NCBI GenBank assembly: GCA_013697735.1
Contig: JACCWH010000050.1
Location: 62-64,061, forward strand
Length of the DNA: 64,000 nt
DNA from: Trueperaceae bacterium
Lineage (GTDB): Bacteria; Deinococcota; Deinococci; Deinococcales; Trueperaceae
Direction: 5' to 3'
How positions within the stretch are numbered: position 1 is the first letter of the stretch; each line of letters opens with the position of its first letter. Below the pieces are notes generated by a model. The model saw nothing but the letters and a program-made list of their open reading frames with translations, was not told the DNA's origin and did not search any database. The position numbers and the translations under genes were made by a program. Of this stretch, positions 33,232-61,680 are shown piece by piece.

Positions 33232-33236
33232 CACAC

Positions 33237-35946: not shown

Positions 35947-35958
35947 GGGCGCCGTGGC

Positions 35959-45430: not shown

Positions 45431-45572
45431 CCGCCTCCGGCGTAAGGCGACCTCCCTCCACGTCTACGTGCGTCCCTGGACGCACTCCGAGTGGGCGGGC
45501 GCGATTGTCGTCGCCCTCACCGCGCTGGGCGCGGTCGGCTACCTGATCTGGCATGTGGCGCGAAGCGGTTGA
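45417..45572 (+). CDS. small membrane protein (51 aa)
   Basis: Basic N-terminus followed by a TM helix (AGAIVVALTALGAVGYLIW). Its stop TGA lies inside the -35 TTGACA of cassette P7. Confidence 0.45.
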   Translation: MKRRSRLRRKATSLHVYVRPWTHSEWAGAIVVALTALGAVGYLIWHVARSG

Positions 45573-45616
45573 CACTCGCGAGGTTTAGGGTATAGGATGC
45601 GGGCGGAGGAAACACC
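45555..45616 (+). promoter_or_regulatory. cassette promoter P7
   Basis: TTGACA 45569-45574, 18-nt spacer, TAGGAT 45593-45598, GGAGGAAACACC, ATG 45617. Confidence 0.7.
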
Positions 45617-46168
45617 ATGACGAACGCTGCGCGCTACATCACCGGAACCGAGCAAGCGAAGATGATCCGCACCAGCCTGCGCGAGGCCTTCCCGGCCACC
45701 ACCTTCACCGTGCGCCAGTCGCGCGGCTCGGCGATCACCGTCGCCTGGGCCGACGGCCCGACCGTGAAGCAGGTCGACGCGCTCGTGCAGCGCTTCGCGG
45801 GCGGCGGCTTCGAGGCCTCCCTGGACCTCGGCTACAGCGTCCAGAGCTACGTCAAGGGCGAGCCCGTCCTCTTCGGCCAGCACTTCATCTTCGCCAACCG
45901 GCGCCTCTCCCTCGCCTTCGCATCGCGCTACCTCGCCCGCGCGAGCGCCTACTACGGTTTCAACGCCGACGCCTTCGCGCTCCGCGGTGACGGTGAGCGC
46001 GGCTACCGGATCGACGCGTCCGACACGAGGCTCGTCGGTTGGGATGCAATCGCGCTCGTCGCCAGGAAGGTCGACGCCTACTCGCACGAGGCCGCCAAGG
46101 ACTCTCCCACGGCTCGCCAGACCGGCACGCACGCGGAGGTCCCCTCGTACATCCAACGCGGCGAGTAG
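45617..46168 (+). CDS. LPD29-like protein (stand-alone large-polyvalent-protein-associated domain)
   Basis: TEQAKMIRTSLREAFPATTFTVRQSRGSAITVAWADGPTVKQVDALVQRF matches my memory of the LPD29 family pattern (TAKliR..Lk..FP..kFsVrs....sI.V.WtDGPt). Behind cassette promoter P7. Confidence 0.55.
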   Translation: MTNAARYITGTEQAKMIRTSLREAFPATTFTVRQSRGSAITVAWADGPTVKQVDALVQRFAGGGFEASLDLGYSVQSYVKGEPVLFGQHFIFANRRLSLAFASRYLARASAYYGFNADAFALRGDGERGYRIDASDTRLVGWDAIALVARKVDAYSHEAAKDSPTARQTGTHAEVPSYIQRGE

Positions 46169-46186
46169 GATCACCGCGGCTCGACC

Positions 46187-46206
46187 GGGCGCCCCACGGG
46201 GCGCCC
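46187..46206 (+). terminator. hairpin
   Basis: GGGCGCCCC AC GGGGCGCCC, between the stop at 46168 and cassette P8. Confidence 0.45.
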
Positions 46207-46213
46207 TACTCGT

Positions 46214-46275
46214 GTGCCGCGATACGGTTGACACGTGCGCAGTTTAGGGTATAGGATGATCTCGGAGGAAACACC
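46214..46275 (+). promoter_or_regulatory. cassette promoter P8
   Basis: TTGACA 46228-46233, 18-nt spacer, TAGGAT 46252-46257, GGAGGAAACACC, ATG 46276. Confidence 0.7.
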
Positions 46276-47085
46276 ATGACCCAGAACTACAACACCATCG
46301 CCCGCGTCCGCACCGGCTACCCCACCCGCGCCCCAGAGCCCAAGGACATCCTCGTGCGCATGAACGTCGACGGCACCGTCCACGAGGCCGGGCTCCTCGC
46401 GAGCCTGAAGCAGTATGGACTCCTCGGGGCCGACACCCGCGCGATCTACCTGGAGTCGTACGTCGACGGCGGCGCCCGCGACCACTTCGCGATCATGGAT
46501 GGCGGCAAGACGATCGGCTCGCTGCAGCTCCTCGGCGACGACGACAACACCCTCCACAATCGCGCCGCCGAGGGCGCCTGGCGGAACGTGATGGACGAGA
46601 AGGGCGACTCGGTCTACGAGGTCTGGTACACCACCGCCCCCGCCGCCTACGACTACAGCTACGTCCGCGCGAGCGACGCGACGCGCTTCGAGGCCACGAA
46701 AGAGGGCGCCGTGCTGCGCCGCGTCGAGATCCCCCGGGCCTCGGTGGCCTACCAGACCGCCCGCTACATGTCGGGGCTGCACATCGCCATCAACGAGGAG
46801 CAGGCCGAGCACGAGGCGCAACAGCGTTACGCCCTCGTGCGCTACGCTCGCGCCCACGTCGCGGGCGCCTACGAGGCCGGGATCTGGCTGGCGATCGTCG
46901 GCGATCGCCTCGTCGCCGATGTGCTGCGCCAGGCGCGGATCGACTCGGGCTGGAGACCCGGCGACGACCACCCAGCGCTCGCTACGATCGCCGTGGCGCT
47001 CCTCGACGGCTCCACGTCGCCCCTGGCGCGCCAGGTCGACCGCCTGGCGCTCCTGGGGGCTCTGACGCGCCACCTGAGCCGCTGA
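46276..47085 (+). CDS. hypothetical early protein
   Basis: 269 aa, behind cassette promoter P8. GC3-rich frame. Confidence 0.65.
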   Translation: MTQNYNTIARVRTGYPTRAPEPKDILVRMNVDGTVHEAGLLASLKQYGLLGADTRAIYLESYVDGGARDHFAIMDGGKTIGSLQLLGDDDNTLHNRAAEGAWRNVMDEKGDSVYEVWYTTAPAAYDYSYVRASDATRFEATKEGAVLRRVEIPRASVAYQTARYMSGLHIAINEEQAEHEAQQRYALVRYARAHVAGAYEAGIWLAIVGDRLVADVLRQARIDSGWRPGDDHPALATIAVALLDGSTSPLARQVDRLALLGALTRHLSR

Positions 47086-47106
47086 TCTCCCCCCACTCCC
47101 CCGGTC

Positions 47107-47169
47107 GTCCCGCAAAGCGGTTGACACCGGGGGAGTTTAGGGTATAGGCTTGCAATCGGAGGAAACACC
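47107..47169 (+). promoter_or_regulatory. cassette promoter P9
   Basis: TTGACA 47121-47126, 18-nt spacer, TAGGCT 47145-47150, GGAGGAAACACC, ATG 47170. Confidence 0.65.
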
Positions 47170-47979
47170 ATGACGAACACCGACAAAATCTTCGCCCCCA
47201 TCACCCTACCGATCACCCTCTCGGTCGGCCGAGCGCGCGCCTCCGCCATCGCCTGCTCCCTCGCCACCTACTCCGAAACCCTCACCGAGGCGGACGAGGC
47301 CTACCCGGTGCTCGCCATCGAGGAAGTGTTCCGCACGCTCTCCTGGCGCCTCCGCTCCCCCGCGGAGGTCTACCTGACCGGCCCCGAAGCCACCCTGATC
47401 GAGAAGGCCGTCGCCCACATCGTCTTCACCGTCGGCGGCACCATCGACGACACGCTGGTCCTGCGCGACCTCGGCAACGCCCACGAGGAGGCCAAAGCCG
47501 CGCAGGCGTCGACCTCGCTCGTCGCCCAGTTCAAGAGGGCACGCGACGACGCCCGCACGGCGTTCGGCGCCTCACGCGCTGGGCGCGCTGGGCGCGACGC
47601 CGCGGTTGCCAACTCCCGCCTCTTCCACGGCGCCACCGTCGACGACGCCACCACCGCCGTGATCGGGGCCATGAGCGCCGAAGACGACCGCGTCGGCCCC
47701 GGCGGCAACCGTTCCCACCACGTCTTGCACCGCCTCATACCCCTCATGTCGATCCTCTCAACCGTGCGCGACCTCGACTCGGACCTCTTCGTCGACGACA
47801 TTCGCGCCGCCCACCTCGTCCACTGGCACGGCAGCCTGTTTCAGCCCGAACACCTCGACGCCGCCCGCGCGATCGTCGCGAACGCGCGAGCGGACCAGGG
47901 CGCCGCCATCCTCTACGTCTACCGCGACGCGACCGGCGCCGCCTGGCGCTGCACGCACGAGCCCGTCACCACCCCCTGA
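47170..47979 (+). CDS. hypothetical early protein
   Basis: 269 aa, behind cassette promoter P9. Followed by a hairpin. Confidence 0.65.
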   Translation: MTNTDKIFAPITLPITLSVGRARASAIACSLATYSETLTEADEAYPVLAIEEVFRTLSWRLRSPAEVYLTGPEATLIEKAVAHIVFTVGGTIDDTLVLRDLGNAHEEAKAAQASTSLVAQFKRARDDARTAFGASRAGRAGRDAAVANSRLFHGATVDDATTAVIGAMSAEDDRVGPGGNRSHHVLHRLIPLMSILSTVRDLDSDLFVDDIRAAHLVHWHGSLFQPEHLDAARAIVANARADQGAAILYVYRDATGAAWRCTHEPVTTP

Positions 47980-47986
47980 CCCCCTC

Positions 47987-48004
47987 GGGCGCCCTCGGGC
48001 GCCC
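47987..48004 (+). terminator. hairpin
   Basis: GGGCGCC CTCG GGCGCCC after the stop at 47979. Confidence 0.45.
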
Positions 48005-48038
48005 CACCGCACTCCCCGTGCTGACGCCCTCAGCCTCG

Positions 48039-48067
48039 TTGACGATCCCGCCGCAGGCGCGTACCAT
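48039..48067 (+). promoter_or_regulatory. sigma-70-type promoter candidate (non-cassette)
   Basis: TTGACG 48039-48044, 17-nt spacer, TACCAT 48062-48067. It would give a ~125-nt leader upstream of ATG 48198. Confidence 0.4.
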
Positions 48068-48096
48068 CGACTCGGTCCTCCGAGACCCGTCGTTTG

Positions 48097-48177
48097 GTAG
48101 CGGCGTTACATACCGGATCAGGCCCCTCGTTTCCTCCAGAAGTCGGGGGCCTTATCCGTGGCACCGTAACGCGCTAC
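48097..48177 (+). promoter_or_regulatory. long imperfect hairpin in the 5' leader, with an anti-RBS sequence in the loop
   Basis: Nested stems are GTAGCG-GCGTTAC/GTAACGC-GCTAC, CGGAT/ATCCG and AGGCCCC/GGGGCCT. The apical loop carries TCCTCC (48132-48137), complementary to the RBS GGAGGA (48188-48193). Confidence 0.4.
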
Positions 48178-48197
48178 ACTCGCCGCCGGAGGATCGC

Positions 48198-48374
48198 ATG
48201 ACGAAGACACAAGCAGAACGAATCGAAGCCGATCAGGCGCGACGTGACGCCTACATCCAAGCCGCCCTCACTGGCCTCTTGGCCGGGAGGGAGGGCGATC
48301 TCCTCCTCGTCGACATCGGCGGGGACGCCGTCCAGTACGCCGAAGCCACCATGAAGGCCGCGGGCGAGTCCTGA
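48198..48374 (+). CDS. hypothetical small protein
   Basis: 58 aa from ATG 48198, with GGAGGA 4 nt upstream. Trimmed from track ORF 48018..48374. Confidence 0.5.
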   Translation: MTKTQAERIEADQARRDAYIQAALTGLLAGREGDLLLVDIGGDAVQYAEATMKAAGES

Positions 48375-49165
48375 TGGCGCACCAGCGCGGGCTCGCCTTC
48401 TTCGACGCTGGCCGCCGCGAGGATCACTTCCTCGACGCCAACTGGCCTGACAGGCCAATCGTCGCCTTCGACCTGGAGACCACCGGCGTCGACCCGCACG
48501 AAGCGCGCATCGTCACCTGGGCGTGGGCGGTCGTCCACCCCGACGGCGACGCTAACGCCGAGAGCGGCCTGGTGAAACCCGACGGCTTCGAGATCCCCGA
48601 GGGCGCCACCGCCGTGCACGGCATCAGCACCGAGGTGGCCCTCGCCGAGGGAAAGAGCCTCGCGCAGGCCCTCACCATCCTGAGCGCGAGGATCCACAAT
48701 GCCGCCATCACCGGAAAGCCGCTAGCGATCTTCAACGCGCCGTACGACATCACCGTCTTCGAGGCCGAACTGGCCCGCGTCGCCGGAGTGAGCGCGGGCG
48801 AGGTCGACCACACTGGCGACTACCCGCCGATCATCGACCCCCTCGTGCTCGACCGGCGCATCGAGAAGTACCGGAAGGGCAAGCGGCAGCTCGGCATCCT
48901 CGCCCCCACCTACGGCGTCGAGCTGGCCCCGGAAGAGGCGCACTCCGCCACCGCGGACGCCATCGCCGCCGGTCGCCTCGCGCTGGCGATGGCCGCGCAG
49001 CACCCGGATGCTCTGCGGATTCCAGCACTGCACCTGCACGAGCGCCAGGTGGCCTGGGCCGAAACGCAGACGACCGACTTCGAGGCCTACCTGCGCAGAT
49101 CGAAGAGCGACCCCACGATCACCCTCGGCCGCGGGTGGCCGCGCCAGCACCCGGTGAGCACGTGA
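48374..49165 (+). CDS. DEDDh 3'-5' exonuclease (DnaQ/epsilon-like)
   Basis: ExoI is FDLETTG, ExoII is FNAPYD and ExoIII is HSATADA. Confidence 0.85.
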   Translation: MAHQRGLAFFDAGRREDHFLDANWPDRPIVAFDLETTGVDPHEARIVTWAWAVVHPDGDANAESGLVKPDGFEIPEGATAVHGISTEVALAEGKSLAQALTILSARIHNAAITGKPLAIFNAPYDITVFEAELARVAGVSAGEVDHTGDYPPIIDPLVLDRRIEKYRKGKRQLGILAPTYGVELAPEEAHSATADAIAAGRLALAMAAQHPDALRIPALHLHERQVAWAETQTTDFEAYLRRSKSDPTITLGRGWPRQHPVST

Positions 49166-49361: not shown

Positions 49362-52300
49362 ATGGCCGACCCGACGAAGATCGACGACGAAATCGGCAGC
49401 GCCTTCCATGCCCTCTTCGGGTCAGGCGTTCGCCCCGCCAACCTCGCTGCCGCCGAAACGCACCTGGCCCGCCGCTTCACGGACGGGCCAGAGCTGTCGA
49501 CGCGCCTGTGGGGCGCCGGGCAGAGCGAGCGCGAGTCGATCATCGACTACCTACGCAAGGAGTACACGCTCGGGAGCGGCTTCGGCGAGACGCCCGGCTA
49601 CCCCTCCAACCGCATCCTCGACAACCTCCGCACGTGGTACACCGACGGCCCCTCCTCCGGCTTGCGTGGCGACCCCACGTACGTCGCGCGCCGCATCGCC
49701 GTGACCGAGTCGGCCTTCTTCACGCAAGCGCTCGATAACGCCGTTGACGAGGAGCTAGAGGCCGCCGGAATGATCGACGGCTACGAGATCCTCCTCGCGC
49801 CCGAACGCGACGATTGGGATTGCGAGTGCCCGGGGCACGCTGACGGCGGGCCCTACCCGACCCTGCTCGACACGCCCGAGCCCCCCTTCCACCCGTTCTG
49901 CGCGTGCAGGCGCCGCCCGATCTTCCTCGACGAACCCAAGCGCAAGAAGCAAGCCGATCGGCGTCGCGCCCTCACCGACTACGCCAGGGGCGTCGGCGTC
50001 GACGTGGCCGCCACCATGCTCGACCGGGAGATCGCCGACCCCAACGATCACCCCGTCCTCACGCTCTTCAAGCAGTACCTCGTCGACTACCTCGCCGGTG
50101 GAACCAAAGCGCACCTGCTCGGCAGCTCGCCACGCTGGGGGCGCCTGATCGGGCGCACCGCCCTCAACTTCACGCTGCGGCACGGCCGCGATTACGTGAT
50201 CAAGACCGCCGTCGACGCCGCCGCGTTGATCCAGAACACCCCCCGCGGCGTCCTCCTGCAAGCCATGACGCACCACCTCGCGCGCCACTACTACCTCGTG
50301 GGCCGCGAACGCCTCCGAACGATGTTCGCCCCCCGGCCGTACGGCGGCCGCGTTGGTGGCCCCCCAGGCGCGGGTAGCAGGCGAGGCCCCCCCGCGGCTC
50401 TCGTCGCGGACACGCGAGCAGTGAGCACCCTCACGCCCGAGATCATCGAGAACGCGGTCGAGTTGGAACGCGCGATGGTGCTCGCGCGCCAAGCGGGCGC
50501 GAAGCTCGGTCCGCCCCTCTCGCCCGCCGAGTTCGACGACAAGATCCGCACGCTCCTCAAGGACGCGATGGTGGGCGGTCGCCCCGTCACCGGCCACGGT
50601 GTCTTCCGGCCGAAGCCGGGAGAGAAGTGGACCGGCAACGAGATCCTCACGCAAGTCTTCGGTGACGGCCTACCGACCACGATCTCCGCCGAGCTGACGA
50701 CCTGGCAGGCGGGCGGGCAGATCGCTCGGCCTCGGCCGAACCTGATCGGCACCGTCACCCCCGACGGCCGCGCGCTCGCCCCCGGGGCCAGGCACGAGGT
50801 CGAGTACCGCGTCTGGCCCGTGAGCGCCATCGACGCCGCCACCCTCGGTGGGGCTCCGGGGGAAGTCTTCCTCCCCCCCGGCGCGACACTGCGCCCGTTC
50901 GCGGTCCAGGAGGAACGCGGGCGCTGGGTGGTCGACTTCCGGGAGATGCCATCGTGGTCGAAGCCCCTCGCGTACGCGGACGACGAGATCACCGCCTGGG
51001 CCAACCTCCCCGTCGGCGTACCCCTCGAACCGAGCGCGGCGCAGGACCTCGTCGACGCCTGGCGTTCACTCTTCCCCCTCCCACCGATGCAAGCCGTCGA
51101 GCACATGCTCTTCGGTCTCCCCGTGAACCTGCAACGCGTCGGCATCACCGGCCGCGCGAACACCATCAACCTCTCGATCACCACCGACGCCTTCACCGCC
51201 ACGCGCACCTTCACCCTGCGCGACGACGGGGTCCGCGTGAGCCACGACACCCTCCGAGTGATTCCCGACCGCCAGGGCGAGGGGCTCGCGCGATCGTTCC
51301 TCGCGAACAGCGTCTACCTGTACGAGGCGCTCGGCTTCAAGGCGATCGAGACGAACGCCTCCGCCCGCGGCGACGACGGCGGTGCTTACACCTGGGCGCG
51401 CTTCGGCTTCACGCCGCAGATCCCGGATTGGCAGGCCGTTCGTGATCGCAACGTCAGGGTGTGGCTCGAACAGAACCGCATCAACCTGACCGTCGCCGAG
51501 GTCAACCTGATCGAGGCCGCGCTCGCCAATCGCCACCCGCGAGCGCTCTGGGCGATCGCCGACCTACCCATCGGCCGCGAAGCGCTCCTCGGCGGCGCGG
51601 GCGTGGGATGGCGCGGGGTGCTCGACCTCACGGATCTGGAGGCGATGCAGCGCTTCAACGCCTACACGCGCCGCTTGCCCCTGGTGATGGAGCGCCAACA
51701 GATCGACCTATCCGAGGTCACGATCAGAAGCTACGCCCCCCCGCCGGATCCGCCACCCGCCATCACGCACGAGGACCAAGTCCGTTACCAGCTCGTCGAA
51801 AGCGAGTTCGCCGGGCCGAACGTGCGCAATGGCGACATCGACGTCAACGCCCAGCGTTGGGACGTCTTCGCGGGCGCCGATACGCCAGCCTCCCTCGTCG
51901 AGCGGCTCCGCAGCGCGCTCGCCGACATCAACCCGAACGTCTACGCCGGGCGCGACCTCGACACCGCGATCATCTCCTTCAGCGAGACCGGCCGCGCCCT
52001 CTACATGGACTACTACTTCCGGGTGGAGGGCGACGCCTTCGGCACCACGATCCAGCTCCGGCATGAGGGCGGGCGGTCGTACGTCGACAAGGTCCGCTTC
52101 TCGAACCCCGAGCGGATCCAGGAGTCCATCGACCTCCTGGGCGTGATCGAACGCGTCTTCCGCGACGAGCTTGGCTTCAACGGGATCAACGTTGACGTCG
52201 ACAGCATCGAGAGGCTCCGCGGCGGGCTGGGCATGGGCCTGCAGGTGCCCGCGTACCAGCGTATCCGGTTGGATATCCACCTGCGCGAAACGATCACCGA

Positions 52301-55300
52301 GGGGCTCGCGGGGAGCCCACGCAACGCGCAACTCCTCGAAGCCTACCTAAGTGACTCGGACGACGTCGGGACCTACCTGCCCATCGCCGCCGCGCTCGAA
52401 CCAACTTGGGCGATCACGCCGAGCGCCGCCTTTGCCCTGCAGACCACACCCCTCTCCCTCATCCTCCCGGTGCGGTCGTCGCCTCGGCGGCGCCTCTACG
52501 ACGCGCTCTCCAGCTCGGGGGGAGGGCCGATCATTCGCGGCCTCCTCGATCGAGCCGAAGAGATCCGCATCGAGGCCATGGCGATCCCCCAGGGCGCCGA
52601 CGTCCAGGGCGACATCACCTTCCCCGACGCCGCGCCCGCGGCCGCGCCGCTGCCCGATCGGAGCGGCTGGCCGACTGAGGCGCGCATCACCCAAATGCGC
52701 AGCGAATGGGGTGACGCCCCGACGACCGCCCAGGAGTTCCAGGACGTCTTCGGGCAGACGATGGATGATGTGCAGGTCGCCGTCTGGAATCAGCGCATCA
52801 ACATCCGACCCGAGCAGTTCGTCGAGTACCTCTACCAGTTCGCGCCGCCCGAAATGGTCGGCGCCTACACCTGGAACTGGCGCATCGGGCACCAGGGGCA
52901 CGTCGAGTTGGATCTGAGGACGACGGCGGGCGTGACCGGCGTCAGCATGGAGATGCGGCGCACCTTCGACTTCTCCCGGCACGGCGATCACAGCGTCTAC
53001 CACGGCTACTACCGGGTCAGCCGCGACTCGGCGAGCCCCCTGCGTGGCGTCGCCCGCGCCGTCTTCTCGGGCTTCTGGGACATCTACGACCACATGGGCA
53101 TCGCGCGAGTCGGCGTCTCCGCCTCCCTCTCTCGCGGCGGTTACGTCTGGGCGCGCTTCGGCTTCCTCCCCGACGGCAACATCTCCGACCTGGGCGACCG
53201 CATGGCGCAGCACCTGGGCTTCGACGCCGTCGCCGCAATCGCGCAGCACGTCGATCCGAACGAGATCGCCGCCACCCTCCGCGGCGCGGCGATCGCGGAG
53301 TACGCCGACGAGCTGGTCGACCTCTACGAGAGCGTGAGCGGCCCCGGCCTCTTCCAGGACCAACTGAGCGTCCTGGTCCCCACCGACCCCGACCGCGTCG
53401 CGGAGATCTTCCGGGAGGTCGATCTCGCCGTCACCCAAGCCGACATCGACGACGCCGTCGACGACGCCGCGAACGCGCTCATGGGCGCTCACAACTCGCC
53501 GATCGAGGCGCTCACCGCCGACTTCCTCGACCAGGAGGGCATCACCGGCTACCCCGACGAGCCGCGCATGCTCTGGGACATCGCCGACCACCTCCAGGGC
53601 GCCGACGTCCTCATGGGCCAAAGCTGGTCGGGCACGTTCGACATGAACGATCCCGACCAGCTCGACCGCTTCAACGGGTACGTGCGGCGCGGTCAGCCGT
53701 GGACGGACCTCCTCGACTACACCGAACAGATCACCGGCTCGCGCCACATGACCTTCTCCCTCAACCGCGCCAAGGTCGCCCGCGCACTCGCGCAACAGAC
53801 GCCCGCCGTTCCCGACGCCCAACTCCCCGTGTGGGAGCCGGACCCCCTCCTCCAGCGCGGGCTCATGCCGAATGTCGGTGTCGCCCCGGCGGGCGTCGAC
53901 CAGGCCTCCTTCGAGTTCATCGCTCGGCACGTCTGGCAGACCACGCCCACGCTCCAGGGCGGTTCCGCGGCCACACACACCGTGGGCAGGCTACGCGAGC
54001 GCGCGGCACACACGATGGAGGGGATGGTGGCGACCCTGAATGTCCCGCCCGCCGCCATCGAGCGCATGATCCTCCCCCCGAAGAGCTGGCCCGCCACGTT
54101 CCAGCTCGCCGCCGAGCCGGTCCACGCGGGAACGGTCGGGAGTCGCGGCGTCCAGTACGAGTTCGAGCTGAGCGCCGCCACGCCGAACCCCGAGTTTGAC
54201 CCCGCCGCCACGCCGAACGCTGATACCAACCCCGAACGGCTCTCCATGCACGTGCTCCTGACGAGCACGCTCGGAACGGGCGAGACGCTCCCGACGACGG
54301 TGATCGACTTCGGCGCGAGCGCATACTTGCGCGTCACGCCCGCGCAGATGATCGAGTCGATCGGCGAGGCCTACCGCGTGGTCCGCGCCGTGACCGCCGA
54401 AGCGAGCAACGTCCAGATCTCGTTCGACACGCTCTCCTTCAGCCACCTCCTCACCCTCGACCTCGCGGATCCCGCGCGGATCCGCGGCATGTCCGAGCTG
54501 GGCTCGATCTTCGCGTGGGCGCCGCACGACCCCAACATGGTGAGCGCGTTGCGCTCGGGGCTCACCAACGCCCACTACTTCCTGCAGGGCCCGACCGGGA
54601 ACGCTGGCATCGTCGACGACGCCACCTTGCGCCGCGTCGAGGCGCACGCGCTCGGGAGCGACATGGGTCGCTGGGTGATGATCGACGACCTCGCCCGGCA
54701 CGGCGAGTACCGCGCCCTCGGTGAGATCGTCATGCAGGGAACCTGGGGCGGTCGGGTGACGCTCGATGTCGTGCGCGAGCGCGCCACGCACCTGATCCCA
54801 ATGCGCCCCCTCTCCCAGCCGATCGTGCGCCTCCCCGAGCGCGTGCTCACCACGGCTGATCCCGAAGCCCAACGCGCTTGGGAGGCGGCGATCGGCCCCG
54901 CCTTCCCAACGCGCTCGGGCGGCGACATGAGCCTCCTGCAACAGCGCGAATCCGGCACCATCGACCTGTGGCTCTCGCAATCACAACGCGACGTGTGGCT
55001 CGCCGATCCCGGCCTCGCCGACGTGCAACGCCTGGCGGTGCTCGACATGATCGCAGGCCCCCGCGCCCCCATGGGGCAACCTCACGCGGATGTCGCGGCG
55101 ACCTTCTACCACCTCCTCAACACTCCCGTGGCGCGGCACCTGAGCCCCGCCGAGCTGTGGCGCGGGTCGGGATTGCGCGATGTTCACCTCGACACCCTCG
55201 CCAACTCCTTCTCGGTCATGCTCTCGCCGCCCGGCCACCAGCTCGGCCGCATCGGCGTCCAGATCCAAGTGCCGCACGCCATCGACGAGCCGGTCCAGAG

Positions 55301-58300
55301 CGTGATCACCGGCTTGGGGGCCGCCCAAGCGATCCTGACCCGCGCTGAAGTGATCGGCCTGGTCGCGAGCGTGGCCGAGGCGGCGTACACCGTCAACCGG
55401 CACCGCATGGGTGGTCGGAGCCGCGCGCAGCTCGCCCTCAACGTGTACGACGGCGAGATCGCCGAGCGGTTGATGCGCGTCTTCTTCGAGCCGGTCGACC
55501 CGGTGCAGATCGAGATGGTCCTCACGCAGATGAAGGTCGTCGCCGAGCGTTCGATGGGTCGCACGCAAGCGAGCGGCGACACTGACGCCTGGAACCGCTA
55601 TCGCAACGTGGTCGAGCGGCTCGAATACTACATCCACGGGACCGACGACCTCGCCACCCGACAGGGGGCCTTCACGAGCCCGAACCACTACATGGCCGGG
55701 ATCGTTCGCACGGCCATCGACGAGCTGGGGCTCGACATCCACCTGCGCGCCACCGGCATCACGGTCGGCGCCTCCGACCGGATCCGCGATCAGGTCGACC
55801 GGATCCTCGACCCGACCTACGGTTCGCGCCTTGAAGTCAGCCTCCCCCCCGGCCTCGATGGCGTGATCACGACCACCAACTACCGAGCGGACGCCGCCGT
55901 CGCCGCCGATGATCTCCTCCGCGACGCTCGCGCGGGGCTCGACCTCGAACGCTGGAACGCCGATCCCGTCCTGCGGCAAGACCAGGCCTTTCCCACCATC
56001 GTCACGGAACGCGCGGCGCGGCCACCCCTCGTCCGCCGCGCTGGCGTTCCCGTCGCGATGGGGCTCGACGAGGTTGGCCTGCAGGGCCTCGGCACGCTGA
56101 TCAACCTCGGCAACCGCACGACCACCCCCTTCGCCGCGATCGTCGGTGCGGGAACCGAGCCGTTCAACACCGAGAGCGTCTTCCTGCAGCTCCGTCGCAT
56201 GTTCGACCTCGACACCCTCTACGGGCGCGGGCCCATGGAGCAGCTCACCGGCTTGCGCGCGGTCTTCGACGAGTCCGCGGCGGTCCTGGCCGTCAGGGGC
56301 ACCCCGCTACTCGGCTTCGTCAACCTCGATCGGTTGATGTCCGGTAGTAAACCCTTCGTCAACCCGTCACCCACCTACCCCGACGCCGTCGCCCCCAACG
56401 ATCACACGGACCTCCCGGGCTATCGCCCCATCGGGCGCTGGGACACATCGAACGACGTGATGGGCGTGATCATCCACGAACACGCGCACATCGCCACGAC
56501 CAGGGTGCTTCACGAGGTCAAGGAGGGCGTGGCGCACGCTCGCACGAGCGCGGGCCCGCACGACGACGCCATCCGGGATTGGGTCGCCCAGGTAGTAGCG
56601 GTCGACCTGAGCGTGCCATCGCACACGGCCCTCCGCGTGCTCTTTCCCTCCGATTACGTCTTCAACACCTACATCCACGAGCGTGAGGTCGATAGGCAGT
56701 ACCGCGAGATCGCCACGTTTGCGAACCTCGTCCCACCACCGCCGCTCTACCCGGACAAAGCGGTGAACGAAATGATCGCGGAGAGCTTCACCGCGATGGC
56801 GATCGACGCCGATCGCTTCCGTCGCGAGCATCCCCTCCTCGCGAACATCGTGGATCTCGTCCTGGTCGAGGCGGGCACCCCGATCATCTGGCCCGCACCC
56901 GGTGAGTTGCGGCGAGTCAATCGCGGCGCCAAGCCGCCGGTCCCGGCGGTCACGCTCGCCCCCCCCGAGCGACCCGTGACGCGCTGGTCGGCTGGGACCC
57001 ACGACCCCCTCACCGTCCCCCGCCTCCCCCCCTTGCCCATCCCCGAAACCGACGAAATCGCGCTCGCCCTCGTTCACGGCGCGGCCCACCAGGCCGCCCT
57101 CACCGCGATGGAGGAGGGCACCGGCATCGTCGTGGTCAATATCGACGCCGTTCAACCGCCGACCCCCACCGCAGAGCGCCGCGGTGGAGTGACGGTCAGC
57201 GCTCTCTCCCGGCATCTGTCGCCCCTCCCCGGCCCACCCCAGGATCCGGTCGCGTGGTTCGCGGGCCTGAAGGAGACGCTCCGCCCGGGCGGCCTGCTCG
57301 TCGCCTACACCCAGAACGTTCACGTGACCCCAGCGACGGGCCAACCGATCGGCAACCTGCTCGACACGCCCGCCGAACGCGCCGCCCTAGAGAGCAACTT
57401 CGCCTACGTCATGCACGTGCACCAGCTCCCCAACGGCCTCAACGTCTGGATGGCGAGCGACGATCGGGCGCGACTCACCGCGGCTACTGCCGAGTTCGCC
57501 GCCCGCTACAACCCGCACCCCCGCCCGGGCGCGATCCCCCCCGGCTCACCCCTCGCGGGGTTGCGCTCACACCCCCTGCGCTTCGACACGGAGATCAACG
57601 AAACCTTCTCGTACGGCGACGCAGCGCTCTATCACGGCACCCGCATCGACATGGCGCTGCGAATCGAGGAGGAGGGCCTGCTCCCCCGCACGGGCGACCT
57701 CACCGAGTCGGTCTACAGCGACTACCCCGGCCAGGTGATCCCCGGCGCCGCCTTCTTCGTCCAGGAGGACCGCCTCGACGCTTTCATCGTCAACCTGATC
57801 GCGATGCGCTACCACGTCGGCCAGAAGCTCGATACGGACATCTCGAAGGTCACGCTGCGCGACGTCCTCGAACACGGCGCGCTGATCGTCGTCGAGCGGT
57901 ACGACCCGGAGGAAGTCTTCCAGCGCAACTGGGAGGGGTGGGACGACGACGAGGGCGAGGAGCGCGCCCTCTTCGTCGACCTCAACGGCGCGCCGGTCAA
58001 CGCGTCGCGCTTCGAGGGGTTGGTCCAGATCGAGGAGGAGGACATCTTCTCGCTCGAACCCCTCCCGGCGAGCGACATCCTCGTCGGCCAACGCCTCCTC
58101 GACTTCTTCCTCACCACCGAACAGCGCCGCACGTCGGTCGAGGAGGCCTTCCCCGGTCAGCTCGACGACATGTACGCCCGCGATCCCCTCTTCCCGGACG
58201 TCCCCCCCGAAGCGAAGCGCAACATCTTCGCTGACGTCTACACCCCCGTGCAACTCCTGGAGCGCGCTATCGAGGAGCAGGGCTTCACCCGGCCGAGCAT

Positions 58301-58634
58301 CCTCGACGACCTCGGCATCGGCCCCGCCGCCCACTGGCCGAGCGTGCGTGAGGGGGCGAACGTGATCGAGCTGGCCGACCTCCTGGCGCTCGACCGGACC
58401 ATCACACCGCGCCTCACCCCCGCCGAGGCCGCCCTCTACACACCCACGTACCTCGCCGCGCGTTACGGTTATCAAGCGGTCGCCTTCGGTGGGATGTATG
58501 CTGTTCTGGACGTCGACGCGGAGCCGGAAGTGGAGGCGGCAGCGTTGATCGGTGGCACGCGGAGACAGCTCGAACAGATCCGTAGCGCCAACCCCGACGT
58601 CGAGTTCCGCTACCTGCGTTATGGAGGACGATAG
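49362..58634 (+). CDS. giant MuF-fused polyvalent protein (3090 aa)
   Basis: Single uninterrupted GC3-rich ORF. The N-terminal MuF/SPP1-gp7 head-morphogenesis signature is RIAVTESAFF...DDWDCECPGHADGG...PPFHPFCACRRRP. Two GNAT-like modules, an HEHAH metallopeptidase motif and other modules lie downstream. Confidence 0.9.
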   Translation: MADPTKIDDEIGSAFHALFGSGVRPANLAAAETHLARRFTDGPELSTRLWGAGQSERESIIDYLRKEYTLGSGFGETPGYPSNRILDNLRTWYTDGPSSGLRGDPTYVARRIAVTESAFFTQALDNAVDEELEAAGMIDGYEILLAPERDDWDCECPGHADGGPYPTLLDTPEPPFHPFCACRRRPIFLDEPKRKKQADRRRALTDYARGVGVDVAATMLDREIADPNDHPVLTLFKQYLVDYLAGGTKAHLLGSSPRWGRLIGRTALNFTLRHGRDYVIKTAVDAAALIQNTPRGVLLQAMTHHLARHYYLVGRERLRTMFAPRPYGGRVGGPPGAGSRRGPPAALVADTRAVSTLTPEIIENAVELERAMVLARQAGAKLGPPLSPAEFDDKIRTLLKDAMVGGRPVTGHGVFRPKPGEKWTGNEILTQVFGDGLPTTISAELTTWQAGGQIARPRPNLIGTVTPDGRALAPGARHEVEYRVWPVSAIDAATLGGAPGEVFLPPGATLRPFAVQEERGRWVVDFREMPSWSKPLAYADDEITAWANLPVGVPLEPSAAQDLVDAWRSLFPLPPMQAVEHMLFGLPVNLQRVGITGRANTINLSITTDAFTATRTFTLRDDGVRVSHDTLRVIPDRQGEGLARSFLANSVYLYEALGFKAIETNASARGDDGGAYTWARFGFTPQIPDWQAVRDRNVRVWLEQNRINLTVAEVNLIEAALANRHPRALWAIADLPIGREALLGGAGVGWRGVLDLTDLEAMQRFNAYTRRLPLVMERQQIDLSEVTIRSYAPPPDPPPAITHEDQVRYQLVESEFAGPNVRNGDIDVNAQRWDVFAGADTPASLVERLRSALADINPNVYAGRDLDTAIISFSETGRALYMDYYFRVEGDAFGTTIQLRHEGGRSYVDKVRFSNPERIQESIDLLGVIERVFRDELGFNGINVDVDSIERLRGGLGMGLQVPAYQRIRLDIHLRETITEGLAGSPRNAQLLEAYLSDSDDVGTYLPIAAALEPTWAITPSAAFALQTTPLSLILPVRSSPRRRLYDALSSSGGGPIIRGLLDRAEEIRIEAMAIPQGADVQGDITFPDAAPAAAPLPDRSGWPTEARITQMRSEWGDAPTTAQEFQDVFGQTMDDVQVAVWNQRINIRPEQFVEYLYQFAPPEMVGAYTWNWRIGHQGHVELDLRTTAGVTGVSMEMRRTFDFSRHGDHSVYHGYYRVSRDSASPLRGVARAVFSGFWDIYDHMGIARVGVSASLSRGGYVWARFGFLPDGNISDLGDRMAQHLGFDAVAAIAQHVDPNEIAATLRGAAIAEYADELVDLYESVSGPGLFQDQLSVLVPTDPDRVAEIFREVDLAVTQADIDDAVDDAANALMGAHNSPIEALTADFLDQEGITGYPDEPRMLWDIADHLQGADVLMGQSWSGTFDMNDPDQLDRFNGYVRRGQPWTDLLDYTEQITGSRHMTFSLNRAKVARALAQQTPAVPDAQLPVWEPDPLLQRGLMPNVGVAPAGVDQASFEFIARHVWQTTPTLQGGSAATHTVGRLRERAAHTMEGMVATLNVPPAAIERMILPPKSWPATFQLAAEPVHAGTVGSRGVQYEFELSAATPNPEFDPAATPNADTNPERLSMHVLLTSTLGTGETLPTTVIDFGASAYLRVTPAQMIESIGEAYRVVRAVTAEASNVQISFDTLSFSHLLTLDLADPARIRGMSELGSIFAWAPHDPNMVSALRSGLTNAHYFLQGPTGNAGIVDDATLRRVEAHALGSDMGRWVMIDDLARHGEYRALGEIVMQGTWGGRVTLDVVRERATHLIPMRPLSQPIVRLPERVLTTADPEAQRAWEAAIGPAFPTRSGGDMSLLQQRESGTIDLWLSQSQRDVWLADPGLADVQRLAVLDMIAGPRAPMGQPHADVAATFYHLLNTPVARHLSPAELWRGSGLRDVHLDTLANSFSVMLSPPGHQLGRIGVQIQVPHAIDEPVQSVITGLGAAQAILTRAEVIGLVASVAEAAYTVNRHRMGGRSRAQLALNVYDGEIAERLMRVFFEPVDPVQIEMVLTQMKVVAERSMGRTQASGDTDAWNRYRNVVERLEYYIHGTDDLATRQGAFTSPNHYMAGIVRTAIDELGLDIHLRATGITVGASDRIRDQVDRILDPTYGSRLEVSLPPGLDGVITTTNYRADAAVAADDLLRDARAGLDLERWNADPVLRQDQAFPTIVTERAARPPLVRRAGVPVAMGLDEVGLQGLGTLINLGNRTTTPFAAIVGAGTEPFNTESVFLQLRRMFDLDTLYGRGPMEQLTGLRAVFDESAAVLAVRGTPLLGFVNLDRLMSGSKPFVNPSPTYPDAVAPNDHTDLPGYRPIGRWDTSNDVMGVIIHEHAHIATTRVLHEVKEGVAHARTSAGPHDDAIRDWVAQVVAVDLSVPSHTALRVLFPSDYVFNTYIHEREVDRQYREIATFANLVPPPPLYPDKAVNEMIAESFTAMAIDADRFRREHPLLANIVDLVLVEAGTPIIWPAPGELRRVNRGAKPPVPAVTLAPPERPVTRWSAGTHDPLTVPRLPPLPIPETDEIALALVHGAAHQAALTAMEEGTGIVVVNIDAVQPPTPTAERRGGVTVSALSRHLSPLPGPPQDPVAWFAGLKETLRPGGLLVAYTQNVHVTPATGQPIGNLLDTPAERAALESNFAYVMHVHQLPNGLNVWMASDDRARLTAATAEFAARYNPHPRPGAIPPGSPLAGLRSHPLRFDTEINETFSYGDAALYHGTRIDMALRIEEEGLLPRTGDLTESVYSDYPGQVIPGAAFFVQEDRLDAFIVNLIAMRYHVGQKLDTDISKVTLRDVLEHGALIVVERYDPEEVFQRNWEGWDDDEGEERALFVDLNGAPVNASRFEGLVQIEEEDIFSLEPLPASDILVGQRLLDFFLTTEQRRTSVEEAFPGQLDDMYARDPLFPDVPPEAKRNIFADVYTPVQLLERAIEEQGFTRPSILDDLGIGPAAHWPSVREGANVIELADLLALDRTITPRLTPAEAALYTPTYLAARYGYQAVAFGGMYAVLDVDAEPEVEAAALIGGTRRQLEQIRSANPDVEFRYLRYGGR
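49629..49931 (+). other. MuF-like head morphogenesis domain of the giant protein (aa ~90-190)
   Basis: The pattern TE..a...A.n......e.g......l.a..D...C..C....G......PP.HP.C.CRR is present. Confidence 0.75.
51084..51432 (+). other. GNAT-like module 1 of the giant protein (aa ~575-690)
   Basis: RQGEGLARSFL fits the Q/R-x-x-G-x-G/A motif, followed by LYEALGFKAIETNAS...GAYTWARFGFTP. Confidence 0.5.
52809..53187 (+). other. GNAT-like module 2 of the giant protein (aa ~1150-1275)
   Basis: LRGVARAVFSGFWDIYDHMGIARVGVSAS...GGYVWARFGFLP. Shares an 18-nt identical DNA stretch (53148-53165) with module 1 (51393-51410). Confidence 0.5.
56259..56862 (+). other. HExxH metallopeptidase-like region of the giant protein (aa ~2300-2500)
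   Basis: VIIHEHAHIATT (HEHAH at nt 56475-56489), with a downstream acidic NEMIAESF that could supply the third zinc ligand. Confidence 0.5.
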
Positions 58635-58918
58635 TGATCGAATACGGCAACGAAAACGAAACCATGGAGTTACTCTTTGCTGCGTTGACCGACATGAAAG
58701 TGCGCATCGGCAAAGCCGCCTACACGGGCACCCTCACCGAGGAGATGTTCGATCGTGAGGCCGCGAGCTTCAAGGCGCTGCACGAGGAGCACCGTGGGGA
58801 CTACCGGATGATGCGCCTCGTGCGCAGCCACCGCGAGGACTTCGGCGACTTCAGCGCGCAAGCGATCCACGATTGGATCAACCGCGGCCGCCTGAACGAT
58901 AGCGAGGAGAGGACCTGA
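58634..58918 (+). CDS. hypothetical protein
   Basis: 94 aa. The GTG overlaps the TAG of the giant gene. The 5' part is visibly less GC-rich. Confidence 0.55.
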   Translation: MIEYGNENETMELLFAALTDMKVRIGKAAYTGTLTEEMFDREAASFKALHEEHRGDYRMMRLVRSHREDFGDFSAQAIHDWINRGRLNDSEERT

Positions 58919-59244
58919 TGGCGAAACGGGAACGATCCCCCGAGGAGGAGGCCCGGTGGCTCGCGTGGACCGCCAAGATGCGCGCGTACTACGCCGAGAC
59001 GTACCCCGGCAAGGTCGAGAGCGGCCTCGACATGATCGACGAGAATAACGAGGGCGAGCTACTGATCTCTCTCGGCCACATCGTTCGGCTGATGAAGAGC
59101 GGGCGCACGTACGGCGAGGCGGTCCAGCTCTTCGGGATCCGCGGCCACCCCTACTTCGCGGAGTTCTGGGCCCCGACCCCCCTGTGGGGGGATGCGAAGT
59201 GGGCCGACGAGACACGCAAGCGCCTCGCCAAGGAACCGGAGTAG
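58918..59244 (+). CDS. hypothetical protein
   Basis: 108 aa. The ATG overlaps the upstream TGA. A 9-bp-stem hairpin follows. Confidence 0.55.
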   Translation: MAKRERSPEEEARWLAWTAKMRAYYAETYPGKVESGLDMIDENNEGELLISLGHIVRLMKSGRTYGEAVQLFGIRGHPYFAEFWAPTPLWGDAKWADETRKRLAKEPE

Positions 59245-60178: not shown

Positions 60179-60568
60179 ATGCCCACGTACAACATCGGGC
60201 GACCGAAGTTCGTCGCTCACGAAGGCAGCGTGATGCTCTACGGTACCGGCGTCCAGATCGACTGGGCCACCGTCACCGCGGACGGGAACGGCGTCAAGAA
60301 GATGCTGTCCGGTACGCTGCTCCACATCGACCCCACGACGCAGCTCGCGCAAGCCGCCGACACCGGCGGTACGCCCGACGCGCCCGCCAGCGCCATCCTC
60401 GTGTCGGACGTCAGCGATACCCCCGGCCAAAATAAGGGGTTTCACGGCGCCTACGTCGGCGGCGTGTTCTACGAGAACCTCATGGCGACGCCCCCCACCG
60501 CGGGTGACAAGACGGCCCTCGGGTCGCGCTTCGTCTTCCAGGTCTACGCTGATTCGAGGCTCGACTAA
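60179..60568 (+). CDS. head decoration protein (lambda gpD-like)
   Basis: 129 aa directly upstream of the gpE-like capsid gene. The segment ...ASAILVSDVSDTPGQNKGFHGAYVGGVFYENL... parallels the gpD pattern. Confidence 0.6.
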   Translation: MPTYNIGRPKFVAHEGSVMLYGTGVQIDWATVTADGNGVKKMLSGTLLHIDPTTQLAQAADTGGTPDAPASAILVSDVSDTPGQNKGFHGAYVGGVFYENLMATPPTAGDKTALGSRFVFQVYADSRLD

Positions 60569-61680
60569 TGCGCTTCGATCTCCGGCACTACATCAACAAT
60601 CTCGACGGCGACGTGATGCACCAGCTCGCCAACGGCGTGCCCGATGGCGAAATGCTGTGGGCCACGTTCCTGCCCGAGCAAGCGCGCGACACCTACCGGA
60701 TCGACGACTCCCAGATGGTCGTCTACTCGACGATGGCTGGCATCGTCGGTCGGGACTCGCCGTACGCGCCCGGCGGGGTCGTGGTCGCGAGCGACTTCAA
60801 GGAAGACGTCGTGAAGTGGTCGATCGAGGCCGCGCTCGGCGAGAACCAGATGATCAAGCTCCAGGAGCTTGCCAGGAAGATCGACATGGGCTCGTCCTCG
60901 CCCCAAGCGATGGTCGAGACCCTCCTCAACTTCTCGGACAAGATCATCGGCCAGTCGCTCCGCGACGGTCTGGAGTACGCCCGCGGTCGCGCGATCCAGG
61001 ACGGCTCGCTCGACTGGACCTTCAACGGCAAGCGGCTCCAGGCCGACTACAACTACCCCGCCGGGCACGTGATCGCCCGCGCGGCCGACGCCGGTGGCGA
61101 CTGGGGCGGCCCCAACTCGACCTTCTGGGCCGACATCGAGCACGCTCGTCGCCTGCTCGACCGCCAAGTGCGCGTGATCGTCATGACCACGAACACCCTC
61201 AACCGGATCATGGCGAACCCGGAAAATAAGCTCCAGGTCACGGAGTTGGCTCGCTCGCGCTACACGGCCAGCTACTCCCTCAAGCAAGTTGCGCAGATCG
61301 GGTACGCGAACGTCGTGCCCGAGGACTACCGCTCGCAGGTGGAGATCGTCACCTACGACCGCAACTTCACGCTCTTCGATCCCGACTCCGCGGACGCGAT
61401 GAAGCACGTCCCGGCGATGGACGACGACCGAGTGATCATCATGGGGCAACCCACGGGCATCCGCTTCGAGGTCGGCTCCACCGAGCTGCCCGAGTACGCG
61501 TACGGCTACACGCACGTGGCGCCCACCGTCGAGGGCGGCGGCTCGTCCGGGCGCTGGATGCGCGTCTACACCCCCGAGGATCAGCCCTGGCGGCTGATCG
61601 GTCAGGGCGTCATGAACGCTCTGCCGGTGATTCGCGAAGCACGCCGGATCGTGGTCTTCAACCTCACGCCGCAGGCCTGA
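60568..61680 (+). CDS. major capsid protein (lambda gpE-like family)
   Basis: 370 aa. The C-terminal part (RVIIMGQPTGIRFEVG...RWMRVYTPEDQPWRLIGQGVMNALPVI...) parallels lambda gpE. The D-then-E gene order supports the call. Confidence 0.8.
   Translation: MRFDLRHYINNLDGDVMHQLANGVPDGEMLWATFLPEQARDTYRIDDSQMVVYSTMAGIVGRDSPYAPGGVVVASDFKEDVVKWSIEAALGENQMIKLQELARKIDMGSSSPQAMVETLLNFSDKIIGQSLRDGLEYARGRAIQDGSLDWTFNGKRLQADYNYPAGHVIARAADAGGDWGGPNSTFWADIEHARRLLDRQVRVIVMTTNTLNRIMANPENKLQVTELARSRYTASYSLKQVAQIGYANVVPEDYRSQVEIVTYDRNFTLFDPDSADAMKHVPAMDDDRVIIMGQPTGIRFEVGSTELPEYAYGYTHVAPTVEGGGSSGRWMRVYTPEDQPWRLIGQGVMNALPVIREARRIVVFNLTPQA

Follow-up and report, generated by a model that had tools for sequence, protein, structure and literature searches.

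Polyvalent proteins, set out as a class by Iyer, Burroughs, Anand, de Souza and Aravind in 2017 (J Bacteriol; PMC5512222), are giant single polypeptides that combine unrelated domains and are encoded amid packaging and virion genes; fusions of a MuF head-morphogenesis domain to GNAT, metallopeptidase, ADP-ribosyltransferase (ART) and methylase domains were described in the same study, and such MuF fusions are believed to enter the capsid and to be delivered together with the DNA. The virion RNA polymerase (vRNAP) of phage N4 and the DarB protein of phage P1 are discussed there as virion proteins, and the vRNAP of the Roseovarius podovirus RPP1 carries both a metallopeptidase and an ART domain, the latter being the prototype of the polyvalent-protein ART (PMC5512222). 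In the MuF polymorphic toxins (Jamet et al. 2017, BMC Biol; PMC5576092), toxin-type enzymatic domains, among which metallopeptidase and ART domains are common, follow an N-terminal MuF. Here we describe a giant gene in a window of 64,000 nucleotides (positions 62 to 64,061 of contig JACCWH010000050.1, Trueperaceae bacterium assembly GCA_013697735.1), a stretch of DNA that is the genome of a siphovirus-like uncultured tailed phage. The 3090-residue product of this gene is likely to be a polyvalent effector that is packaged in the capsid and delivered by injection to the host cell.

That reading is drawn from homology to MuF, from the place of the gene at the opening of the capsid-assembly block, from the recurrent linkage of MuF with GNAT modules, and from virion data on a protein of the Alteromonas phage vB_AcoS-R7M (‘R7M’). 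The class, the MuF fusions and the component domains are already known (PMC5512222, PMC5576092), and larger MuF-GNAT giants exist (6205 residues). What is new is the specific family, which is unannotated, extremely rare, missed by every curated model tried and equipped with a duplicated GNAT, and whose source contig is binned in a Trueperaceae metagenome-assembled genome (MAG). A first-pass annotation of the window, made from its letters, had recognized this combination of domains from no described protein and had allowed for a frameshift that splits the gene; no sign of a frameshift was found, while the claim of an undescribed architecture has to be narrowed, given that polyvalent MuF fusions as a class are already on record (PMC5512222).

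A single giant gene and its family

The features of the giant gene are as follows (window positions; module borders were drawn from conservation along an alignment of the six family proteins):

49362 to 58634, plus strand: the giant gene, encoding the MuF-fused polyvalent protein (3090 residues, 338.5 kDa, pI 5.1)
49536 to 49919, plus strand: divergent MuF domain (phage head-morphogenesis, SPP1 gp7 / Mu F type), aa 59-186, from PHROG and hhalign
49929 to 50516, plus strand: linker, predicted to be helical, aa 190-385, of low conservation; helices in the AlphaFold2 (AF2) model with predicted local distance difference test (pLDDT) scores of 30-45
50574 to 50966, plus strand: family-specific module (GVFR...ELTTW...GEVFLPPGATLRPFAV...REMPSW), aa 405-535, conserved in six of six proteins
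51042 to 51725, plus strand: GNAT module A, aa 561-788, a GNAT fold with a helical subdomain (NRHPRALWAIADLP...LDLTD...RFNAY)
51729 to 52772, plus strand: region with no domain assignment, aa 790-1137
52773 to 53699, plus strand: GNAT module B, core aa 1138-1273 and helical subdomain aa 1399-1446
53700 to 56363, plus strand: central region of ~890 residues, aa 1447-2334, of low conservation
56364 to 56921, plus strand: candidate zincin-like metallopeptidase, aa 2335-2520, from invariant motifs and helix prediction
57084 to 57509, plus strand: segment of predicted class-I methyltransferase fold, aa 2575-2716, from Foldseek
57609 to 58091, plus strand: ART-like domain, aa 2750-2910, with a putative H-Y-E/D configuration
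58329 to 58631, plus strand: conserved C-terminal module (YTPTYLAARYGYQAV...GGTRRQLEQIRSANPDVEFRYLRY), aa ~2990-3090, conservation 0.33-0.51

The open reading frame (ORF) at 49362-58634 runs through 3090 codons with no internal stop, from an ATG at 49362 that is the earliest start codon past an in-frame stop at 49155, and the N-terminus of its product lines up with those of its homologues residue by residue. The GC content of third codon positions (GC3) lies between 0.86 and 0.93 in frame in every 900-nt block and drops to 0.76 only in the last partial block (~270 nt), against 0.42-0.54 at second positions and a genome GC of 68%; so steady a profile indicates real coding sequence with no local change of frame. 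With 9273 of 64145 bases (14.5%), the gene fills about one seventh of the genome, and the earlier description of a single uninterrupted ORF of that share has thus held.

An ORF of this length might also be an artefact, arising by chance in 68% GC DNA or from the joining of separate genes through an assembly or sequencing error. High-GC DNA does yield many spurious long ORFs, and dozens overlap this region in other frames. However, the GC3 bias extends in frame along the whole length, colinear homologues, 3147-4037 residues in length, are encoded on five independent contigs that come from different sources (JGI, ENA and Logan), and an identical protein (NCBI MBA2666118.1, ‘MAG: hypothetical protein’, Trueperaceae bacterium) is recorded on two contigs, with both NCBI and Logan as sources. 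Because the five homologues are full length and lie on independent contigs, a chance or chimeric ORF is excluded; together with the GC3 profile they effectively refute this explanation, to which we attach next to no probability. The giant ORF is confirmed as a genuine single gene.

A search of 5.8 billion proteins returned only those five homologues (3588, 3147, 4007, 4023 and 4037 residues, on separate metagenome contigs), which are 31-39% identical to the window protein overall and 64-71% identical in the first 200 residues. When a profile of the first 790 residues was run exhaustively with HMMER against 1.84 billion cluster representatives, the whole N-terminal architecture was found in four (the window protein, family members P0005 and P0006, and one 745-residue fragment), and the giant family is therefore very rare. 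Its members differ in their internal modules: P0004 carries the HExxH protease module twice, P0002 and P0004 retain an intact methyltransferase and have an extra module of ~350 residues ahead of the conserved C-terminus, and in P0005 and P0006 the ART-like domain is interrupted by an insert of ~270 residues with R-S-E-type motifs (MYRGMSWEEW...GLTYYAT). The share of the genome taken up by the gene reaches an estimated 17-22% in relatives (gene against contig), and expenditure on this scale would point to strong selection for many activities at the time of DNA entry.

Curated models did not recognize the protein. Neither the whole 3090-residue sequence nor ten overlapping 400-residue windows of it matched Pfam, the same ten windows gave no match in NCBIfam, and the PDB, searched with a profile of the complete alignment of six sequences, yielded only sub-threshold matches to GNAT and methyltransferase structures. 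Nothing similar to the giant gene or its neighbours was found among GenBank phages at the nucleotide or protein level (by megablast, by tblastn of aa 1-3000, and by distant blastn of the large terminase and portal genes), and scans of IMG/VR and GTDB genomes with MuF or N-terminal patterns gave no match.

The MuF domain, the GNAT modules and proposed delivery

The N-terminal MuF signature noticed in the first-pass annotation was upheld by two kinds of profile comparison. PHROG families 115, 1657 and 2841 (minor head or head morphogenesis) match aa 25-201 with E-values (E) of 4.8e-5, 8.9e-4 and 8.5e-3, and an hhalign comparison of the N-terminal alignment of the giants with a set of 48 MuF domains gave a probability of 93.4 and E 2.5e-7 over 117 columns, pairing aa 59-186 with MuF columns 4-125 of 126 and bringing the TE motif into register along with the terminal ...PPxHPxCxC. 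The seed of that set was a MuF region validated by Pfam (E 3.7e-11) in a GNAT-module-bearing metagenomic protein (L003), and the set was iterated over the proteins gathered in the analysis, with the giant family left out; its members match ‘head morphogenesis’ genes in 1143 cultured-phage records. The motifs quoted in the annotation are in place (RIAVTESAFF at 111-120, DDWDCECPGHADGG at 150-163 and PPFHPFCACRRRP at 174-186), and the comparisons support the assignment of aa 59-186 as a divergent MuF domain. Cysteine occurs just four times in the entire protein (C154, C156, C180 and C182), always within the CxC...HPxCxC portion of this domain, and all four are invariant across the giant family, a pattern that suggests a zinc-binding knuckle.

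Modules A and B are confirmed, by profile comparison and by the modelled fold of module A, as two GNAT-fold paralogues, in agreement with the two GNAT-like modules originally proposed. When module A was aligned against aa 1090-1460 with hhalign, a probability of 98.7 and E 2e-16 were obtained; a local hidden Markov model (HMM) of the module detects module A at E 7e-73 and module B as two domains (E 4.8e-28 and 5.1e-17), the core and helical subdomain of the latter being parted by an insert of ~125 residues. The AF2 model of module A (aa 540-775) has pLDDT values of 75-90, and its leading Foldseek matches in the PDB are all GNATs (SpeG, NatD, RimI and Naa50) with probabilities of 0.97-1.0, at E of only 0.009-0.05 with a 790-residue query. 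The predicted acetyl-CoA loop of module A (Q638-G-E-G641-L-A643) is intact, and a Q/R-x-x-G-x-G/A loop is present in six of six family proteins; the corresponding loop of module B is weaker (LRGVARA, versus GxGxGKA in homologues). Two family members match Pfam Acetyltransf_7 (E 0.04) and the window protein matches no Pfam model, while the nearest relatives of the module outside the family, P0009 and P0010 (profile E 8e-83 and 4e-73), pass Acetyltransf_1 (E 3e-11 and 1e-16) within the matched stretch. ‘Degenerate’ GNAT copies, which had also been proposed, could not be found: an iterated module HMM run with the --max setting finds exactly two copies per protein, and hhalign comparisons of the other segments were not significant.

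The module extends far beyond the giant family. Its helical subdomain is recognizable by the signature ...P(K/R)AIW..A......G..LL....W.G.LDL.D...M.RF..Y, and 2085 representative clusters match the module at E <=1e-3 (759 at E <=1e-10); among the best 150 of those 2085, at least 140 match the GNAT module alone. MuF is present in 38 of 144 GNAT-module relatives, including giants of 6205, 4564 and 2067 residues, and Phage_Mu_F was passed by 15 of the 85 relatives that were scanned with Pfam. Other partners of the module in that scan were Acb1 (anti-CBASS), Zeta toxin, NUDIX, topoisomerase IB and ATLF; P0010 joins it to ADPrib_exo_Tox, and a 2025-residue metagenomic relative joins it to ddrB-ParB, a hallmark of polyvalent proteins. 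The GNAT-plus-helical module is thus a very common MuF-linked cargo, and no curated model spans it whole. In P0011 (6205 residues), P0014 (4564 residues, which also has a Zeta toxin domain) and P0008 (2067 residues) the module accompanies an N-terminal MuF; P0008 and P0021 (4416 residues) each have seven stretches that are matched by the profile of aa 1-790.

R7M provides, by analogy, the strongest available experimental backing for the view that MuF may bring a GNAT module into virions. Its gp24 (YP_009859573.1, 637 residues, annotated as head morphogenesis), whose gene stands between those for the portal and the scaffold, contains the GNAT module at residues 47-223 (E 1.3e-28) and a MuF domain at residues 392-509 (E 2.3e-15), and in the structural proteome of purified R7M particles ORF24 is listed as ‘Minor head’ (71.4 kDa, 33 peptides, 52.3% coverage; PMC8265664 Table S2). 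Likeness to this protein lends indirect support to packaging of the giant protein. The two are similar in that the same GNAT-plus-helical family is fused to MuF and encoded in a siphovirus head gene block. They differ in that gp24 is five times smaller, has the reversed order (GNAT N-terminal to MuF), and possesses a single GNAT, ~24-29% identical in its core, with no protease, ART or methyltransferase-fold domain.

MuF proteins such as SPP1 gp7 are portal-associated head components. In the sequence of events that we consider likely, the N-terminal MuF would draw the 338-kDa polypeptide to the portal or procapsid during head assembly, the protein would be packaged with the DNA at low copy number, and it would be expelled into the host cell on infection. 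The two GNAT acetyltransferases and the H-Y-E/D ART-like domain would then come into play at the very start of infection, probably by modifying host proteins or RNAs so as to blunt defence or take over host functions, while the zincin-like HExxH domain would most likely cut the giant protein into active pieces or else cleave host targets, roles of a kind already put forward for the class (PMC5512222). We infer each of these steps (packaging, ejection, catalytic activity, substrates and self-processing) from the domains and their kin. A bolder extension, which we put forward as a single conjecture and regard as doubtful, is that of a self-processing ‘effector polyprotein’, in which the zincin would cut the injected protein into at least five independent enzymes, the ~1800 unassigned residues (especially aa 790-1137 and 1447-2334) would comprise undescribed enzyme folds or anti-defence activities, and the GNAT-plus-helical module would represent a new class of injected acetyltransferase directed against host immunity or translation.

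The remaining segments of the giant protein

Structure models outside GNAT module A were of limited quality: AF2, run from six sequences, gave mean pLDDT values of 56 and 47 and performed poorly elsewhere in the protein, and the Foldseek results for the C-terminal third are for that reason weak and dominated by methyltransferases. The metallopeptidase and ART assignments in that third are built largely from motifs and their conservation.

One of these motif sets belongs to aa 2335-2520. H2372-E-H-A-H2376 is the only HExxH in the protein (the single site that had been reported at the outset) and falls on a predicted helix; it is invariant, as are S2430-D-Y2432 and E2470/E2474 (an ExxxE on a later helix), in all seven family copies (P0004 having two), at 27-33% identity, and the helices that bear HExxH and E2470/E2474 are modelled with pLDDT of ~50-74. 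The Roseovarius podovirus vRNAP has AVVIHEMAHII where the giant protein has GVIIHEHAHIA, with an hhalign E of 7e-4 but a probability of 27%. The segment matched nothing in PDB profile, Pfam or Foldseek searches, and is rated a probable zincin metallopeptidase at the level of motifs.

One of the two ART-like segments proposed in the first-pass annotation, aa 2750-2910, is moderately supported by conservation and modelling. L-Y-H2758-G-T, Y2785 and Q2889-x-E2891-xx-D2894 are invariant in it, and the strand placement of H2758, Y2785 and E2891-D2894 (taken from a model with pLDDT of 45-72) may be compared with the polyvalent-protein ART, in which H lies on strand 1, Y on strand 2 and D on strand 5 (PMC5512222). 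The third-ranked Foldseek match in BFVD is an ‘ART-PolyVal-like domain-containing protein’ (probability 0.98, E 0.19, 141 columns). In a PDB profile search of the same segment, three of the four matches were RNA 2'-phosphotransferases (Tpt1/KptA), aligned on LYHGT...GL.P at E ~0.5; RNA 2'-phosphotransferases belong to the ART superfamily. LYHGT is identical in the Roseovarius podovirus vRNAP, its place inside the ART domain of that protein not being confirmed. The Pfam ART-PolyVal model does not match aa 2750-2910, and tblastn of the segment against GenBank phages at E up to 10 found nothing.

The other proposed ART-like segment, aa 405-535, fared less well and retains a resemblance at the level of motifs. 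Outside the family this module occurs only in fragments P0007 and P0016. Its VFR, TT and GEVFLPPG can be matched to the R, STS and ExE motifs of a validated ADPrib_exo_Tox domain, at a non-significant hhalign E of 0.43; there is no ART match in the PDB, the catalytic Glu is not conserved, and the candidacy of the segment as an R-S-E ART was rejected on these grounds. It is at most a degenerate relic of that type.

A second probable relic is found at aa 2575-2716, where the leading Foldseek matches in the PDB all have the fold of S-adenosylmethionine (SAM)-dependent methyltransferases (E 0.016 or weaker, probability up to 0.99) and the best match in BFVD is a phage methyltransferase. Pfam Methyltransf_25 matches two homologues only. 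The glycine-rich SAM motif I (VIDVGASEGQFG) is present in P0002 and P0004 and gone from P0003, P0005, P0006 and the window protein, in which the segment is rated, on sequence and predicted fold, as an inactive methyltransferase relic.

More than half of the protein had been described as devoid of any nameable motif, and ~59% of it (~1800 residues) indeed has no domain assignment. In aa 790-1137, the candidate for a degenerate GNAT copy, an hhalign comparison with the GNAT module gave E 0.018 over only 18 columns, and the N-terminal part of the region weakly matches the lead-in of the GNAT modules of other proteins (P0047, E 3e-4). The central region, aa 1447-2334, matched nothing in Pfam, PHROG, NCBIfam or the PDB, and the conserved C-terminal module (aa ~2990-3090) gave no database match. 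An all-against-all hhalign comparison of the unassigned segments revealed no internal repeats, its lone match (M7-M8) being the duplicated protease module of P0004. At the DNA level, a tandem repeat with a 30-bp unit, present in 2.1 copies at 78% match, lies at 54173-54234 and encodes a Pro/Thr/Asn-rich stretch, ATPNPEFDPAATPNADTNPE, that is probably an inter-domain linker.

Such a distribution of intact, eroded and featureless segments raises the alternative that the protein is mainly a structural component of the head interior, a MuF-anchored DNA pilot, inner body or spacer whose enzyme modules are mostly decayed relics retained for bulk or binding. The loss of methyltransferase motif I from four of six family members, the lack of a conserved catalytic Glu in aa 405-535, the ~59% of the sequence that is free of domains and poorly conserved (identity of 0.11-0.25 across aa 1450-2220) and the location of the gene within the head-assembly block in every relative would all suit such a role. 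Set against these is the persistence of catalytic-type residues: module A keeps its acetyl-CoA loop in all six proteins, and the HExxH, SDY and ExxxE motifs (in seven copies) and the ART-like H, Y and E are invariant despite overall identities of 26-36%, a pattern that fits selection on catalytic residues. Moreover, in proteins related through the GNAT module the fusion partners include evident effectors (Acb1, Zeta toxin and ADPrib_exo_Tox). We therefore regard a mainly structural role as unlikely.

Gene neighbourhood and comparison with described systems

The following neighbouring and distant genes of the window bear on the placement of the giant gene:

1424 to 7144: tape-measure protein, 1906 residues (PHROG E 3e-38)
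14358 to 15338, minus strand: primase-like gene
19680 to 20750: replication-initiator-like gene
39653 to 40525: small terminase (weak)
40368 to 42056: large terminase (TerL)
42053 to 43666: portal
44681 to 45430: Mu Gam-like protein, a DNA-end protection type (Pfam E 1e-12)
45617 to 46168: solo LPD29 gene (‘large polyvalent-protein-associated domain’; Pfam E 8e-18)
48374 to 49165: RNase_T exonuclease
58634 to 59244: two small ORFs
about 59.4 to 60.2 kb: scaffold-like gene
60568 to 61680: major capsid protein

The giant gene sits past the portal gene and ahead of the scaffold and major capsid genes, where it opens the capsid-assembly block; the block leaves the window at its end and resumes at the beginning, the pattern that a complete, circularly permuted genome should give. 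The same downstream order is common to the contigs of three relatives: giant gene, variable small ORF, conserved small ORF (43-61% identity), scaffold-like protein of ~232 residues (46-59% identity), a protein of ~130 residues, and a capsid protein of 370-393 residues; on the contigs of P0002 and P0004 it runs on through tail genes to the tape-measure protein. This neighbourhood of head genes, together with the domain calls, bears out the multi-enzyme polyvalent character and the structural-module context that were first ascribed to the gene. Between portal and giant gene, the interval 44681-49165 holds non-structural genes of an ‘early-invasion’ type (Gam-like, LPD29 and RNase_T). The LPD29 gene lies 3 kb upstream of the giant gene and also occurs on the contig of a relative (L001), where SprT-like, LPD29 and RNase_T genes stand directly upstream of the giant gene.

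The first of the two small downstream ORFs (58634-58918, 94 residues) begins at the stop codon of the giant gene, and the relatives all have an ORF of like size and place whose sequence similarity is not detectable; this variable ORF could encode an immunity- or chaperone-type partner of the giant protein. The second (58918-59244, 108 residues) is the conserved one, 43-61% identical across relatives. An immunity gene in this position is what would be expected if the giant protein were a MuF polymorphic toxin, released by lysing lysogens or from particles to kill competitors while the downstream gene shields the producer. An N-terminal MuF followed by a toxin-type metallopeptidase and an ART is a described MuF-toxin layout (PMC5576092), and the first small ORF keeps its place but not its sequence among relatives, as immunity genes often do. 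On the other side, the C-terminal ~100 residues (~2990-3090) are conserved rather than polymorphic, with variation located in internal modules; there are many domains instead of a single terminal toxin; among ~40 window ORFs scanned, in a scan that covered part of the ORFs and was not exhaustive, neither an integrase nor a lysogeny gene turned up; and the GNAT module is not in the domain list of the MuF-toxin study (PMC5576092). Those toxins, moreover, carry one variable C-terminal toxin with an immunity gene and belong mostly to temperate phages, whereas the giant protein is built of many modules, has a conserved C-terminus and contains a GNAT that lies outside their catalogue. The likeness lies in the N-terminal MuF and the toxin-type enzymatic domains behind it, and a toxin directed at competitors seems quite unlikely.

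Several observations also weigh against the injected-effector reading that we favour. The Pfam model Phage_Mu_F (PF04233) fails to match the giant protein at every threshold tried, so that its MuF membership rests on weaker and more indirect statistics. About 5.7 kb of other genes, including those for Gam, LPD29 and the exonuclease, separate the portal gene from the giant gene. The metallopeptidase and ART calls consist of motifs and of models with low confidence (a mean pLDDT of 47, a Foldseek E of 0.19 and a PDB profile E of ~0.5), and some modules appear to be relics, given a methyltransferase fold that has lost its SAM loop and a segment at aa 405-535 that lacks a conserved catalytic Glu. 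The large unassigned fraction of the sequence counts on the same side, and a protein of 338 kDa would need to pass a siphovirus tail, by a route that is hard to see.

Among described systems the closest are the polyvalent proteins. The giant protein is, like them, a single very large polypeptide of unrelated domains encoded amid packaging and virion genes; the hub domains of the class that are proposed here are MuF, a zincin metallopeptidase, an H-Y-D/E ART, GNAT and a methylase fold, and a solo LPD29 gene stands near the giant gene. By the class criterion of at least two unrelated effector-type domains, MuF and two GNATs are well supported, and the zincin, ART and methyltransferase assignments are weaker. 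Unlike described members, it is matched by none of the Pfam models of that study (ART-PolyVal, the LPD families, ddrB-ParB, MuF_C and others) and has no SWI2/SNF2-methylase dyad, ParB or ArdC; it has GNAT twice, is ~59% unassigned, and is represented by ~4 clusters among 1.84 billion representatives.

The vRNAP of coliphage N4 is ~3500 residues long. It and P1 DarB resemble the giant protein as very large enzymes that travel in the capsids of phages of about 60-90 kb and are delivered along with the DNA, as we infer for the giant protein as well. N4-like vRNAPs also carry a metallopeptidase, to which that of Roseovarius podovirus RPP1 adds an ART; RPP1 and the giant protein have LYHGT and IHExAHI in common, these being short motifs whose sharing is not statistically significant. 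In contrast to the N4 and P1 proteins, the giant protein lacks an RNA polymerase, a helicase and an active DNA methylase, and its targeting would proceed via MuF.

If the injected-effector reading is true, the polyvalent-protein strategy reaches phages associated with a Deinococcota (Trueperaceae) MAG, and a cargo as commonly linked to MuF as the GNAT-plus-helical module has no family model dedicated to it. R7M gp24, being cultured and virion-associated, may be used to learn the role of injected phage acetyltransferases, and the large unassigned stretches of the giant protein are candidates for new counter-defence enzymes.

Elsewhere in the window, ARAGORN calls a tRNA-Leu (anticodon GAG) at 27873-27962 on the minus strand, within a plus-strand ORF of 688 residues (27297-29363) that has no PHROG match; either the tRNA call or the overlapping ORF is spurious. 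The large ORFs at 29373-31877 and 34546-35946 also have no PHROG match. Across 30001-36000 the GC skew is -0.28 to -0.29 and the AT skew rises to +0.30, far outside the values in the rest of the window, and GC reaches 0.72 locally at 30-32 kb.

The tape-measure protein, of 1906 residues here, compares with 2026 residues in a relative and 1391 residues on the contig of P0004. At the usual conversion of 0.15 nm per residue, 1906 residues correspond to a tail of roughly 280 nm, and the predicted size of the protein implies a tail that would be unusually long.

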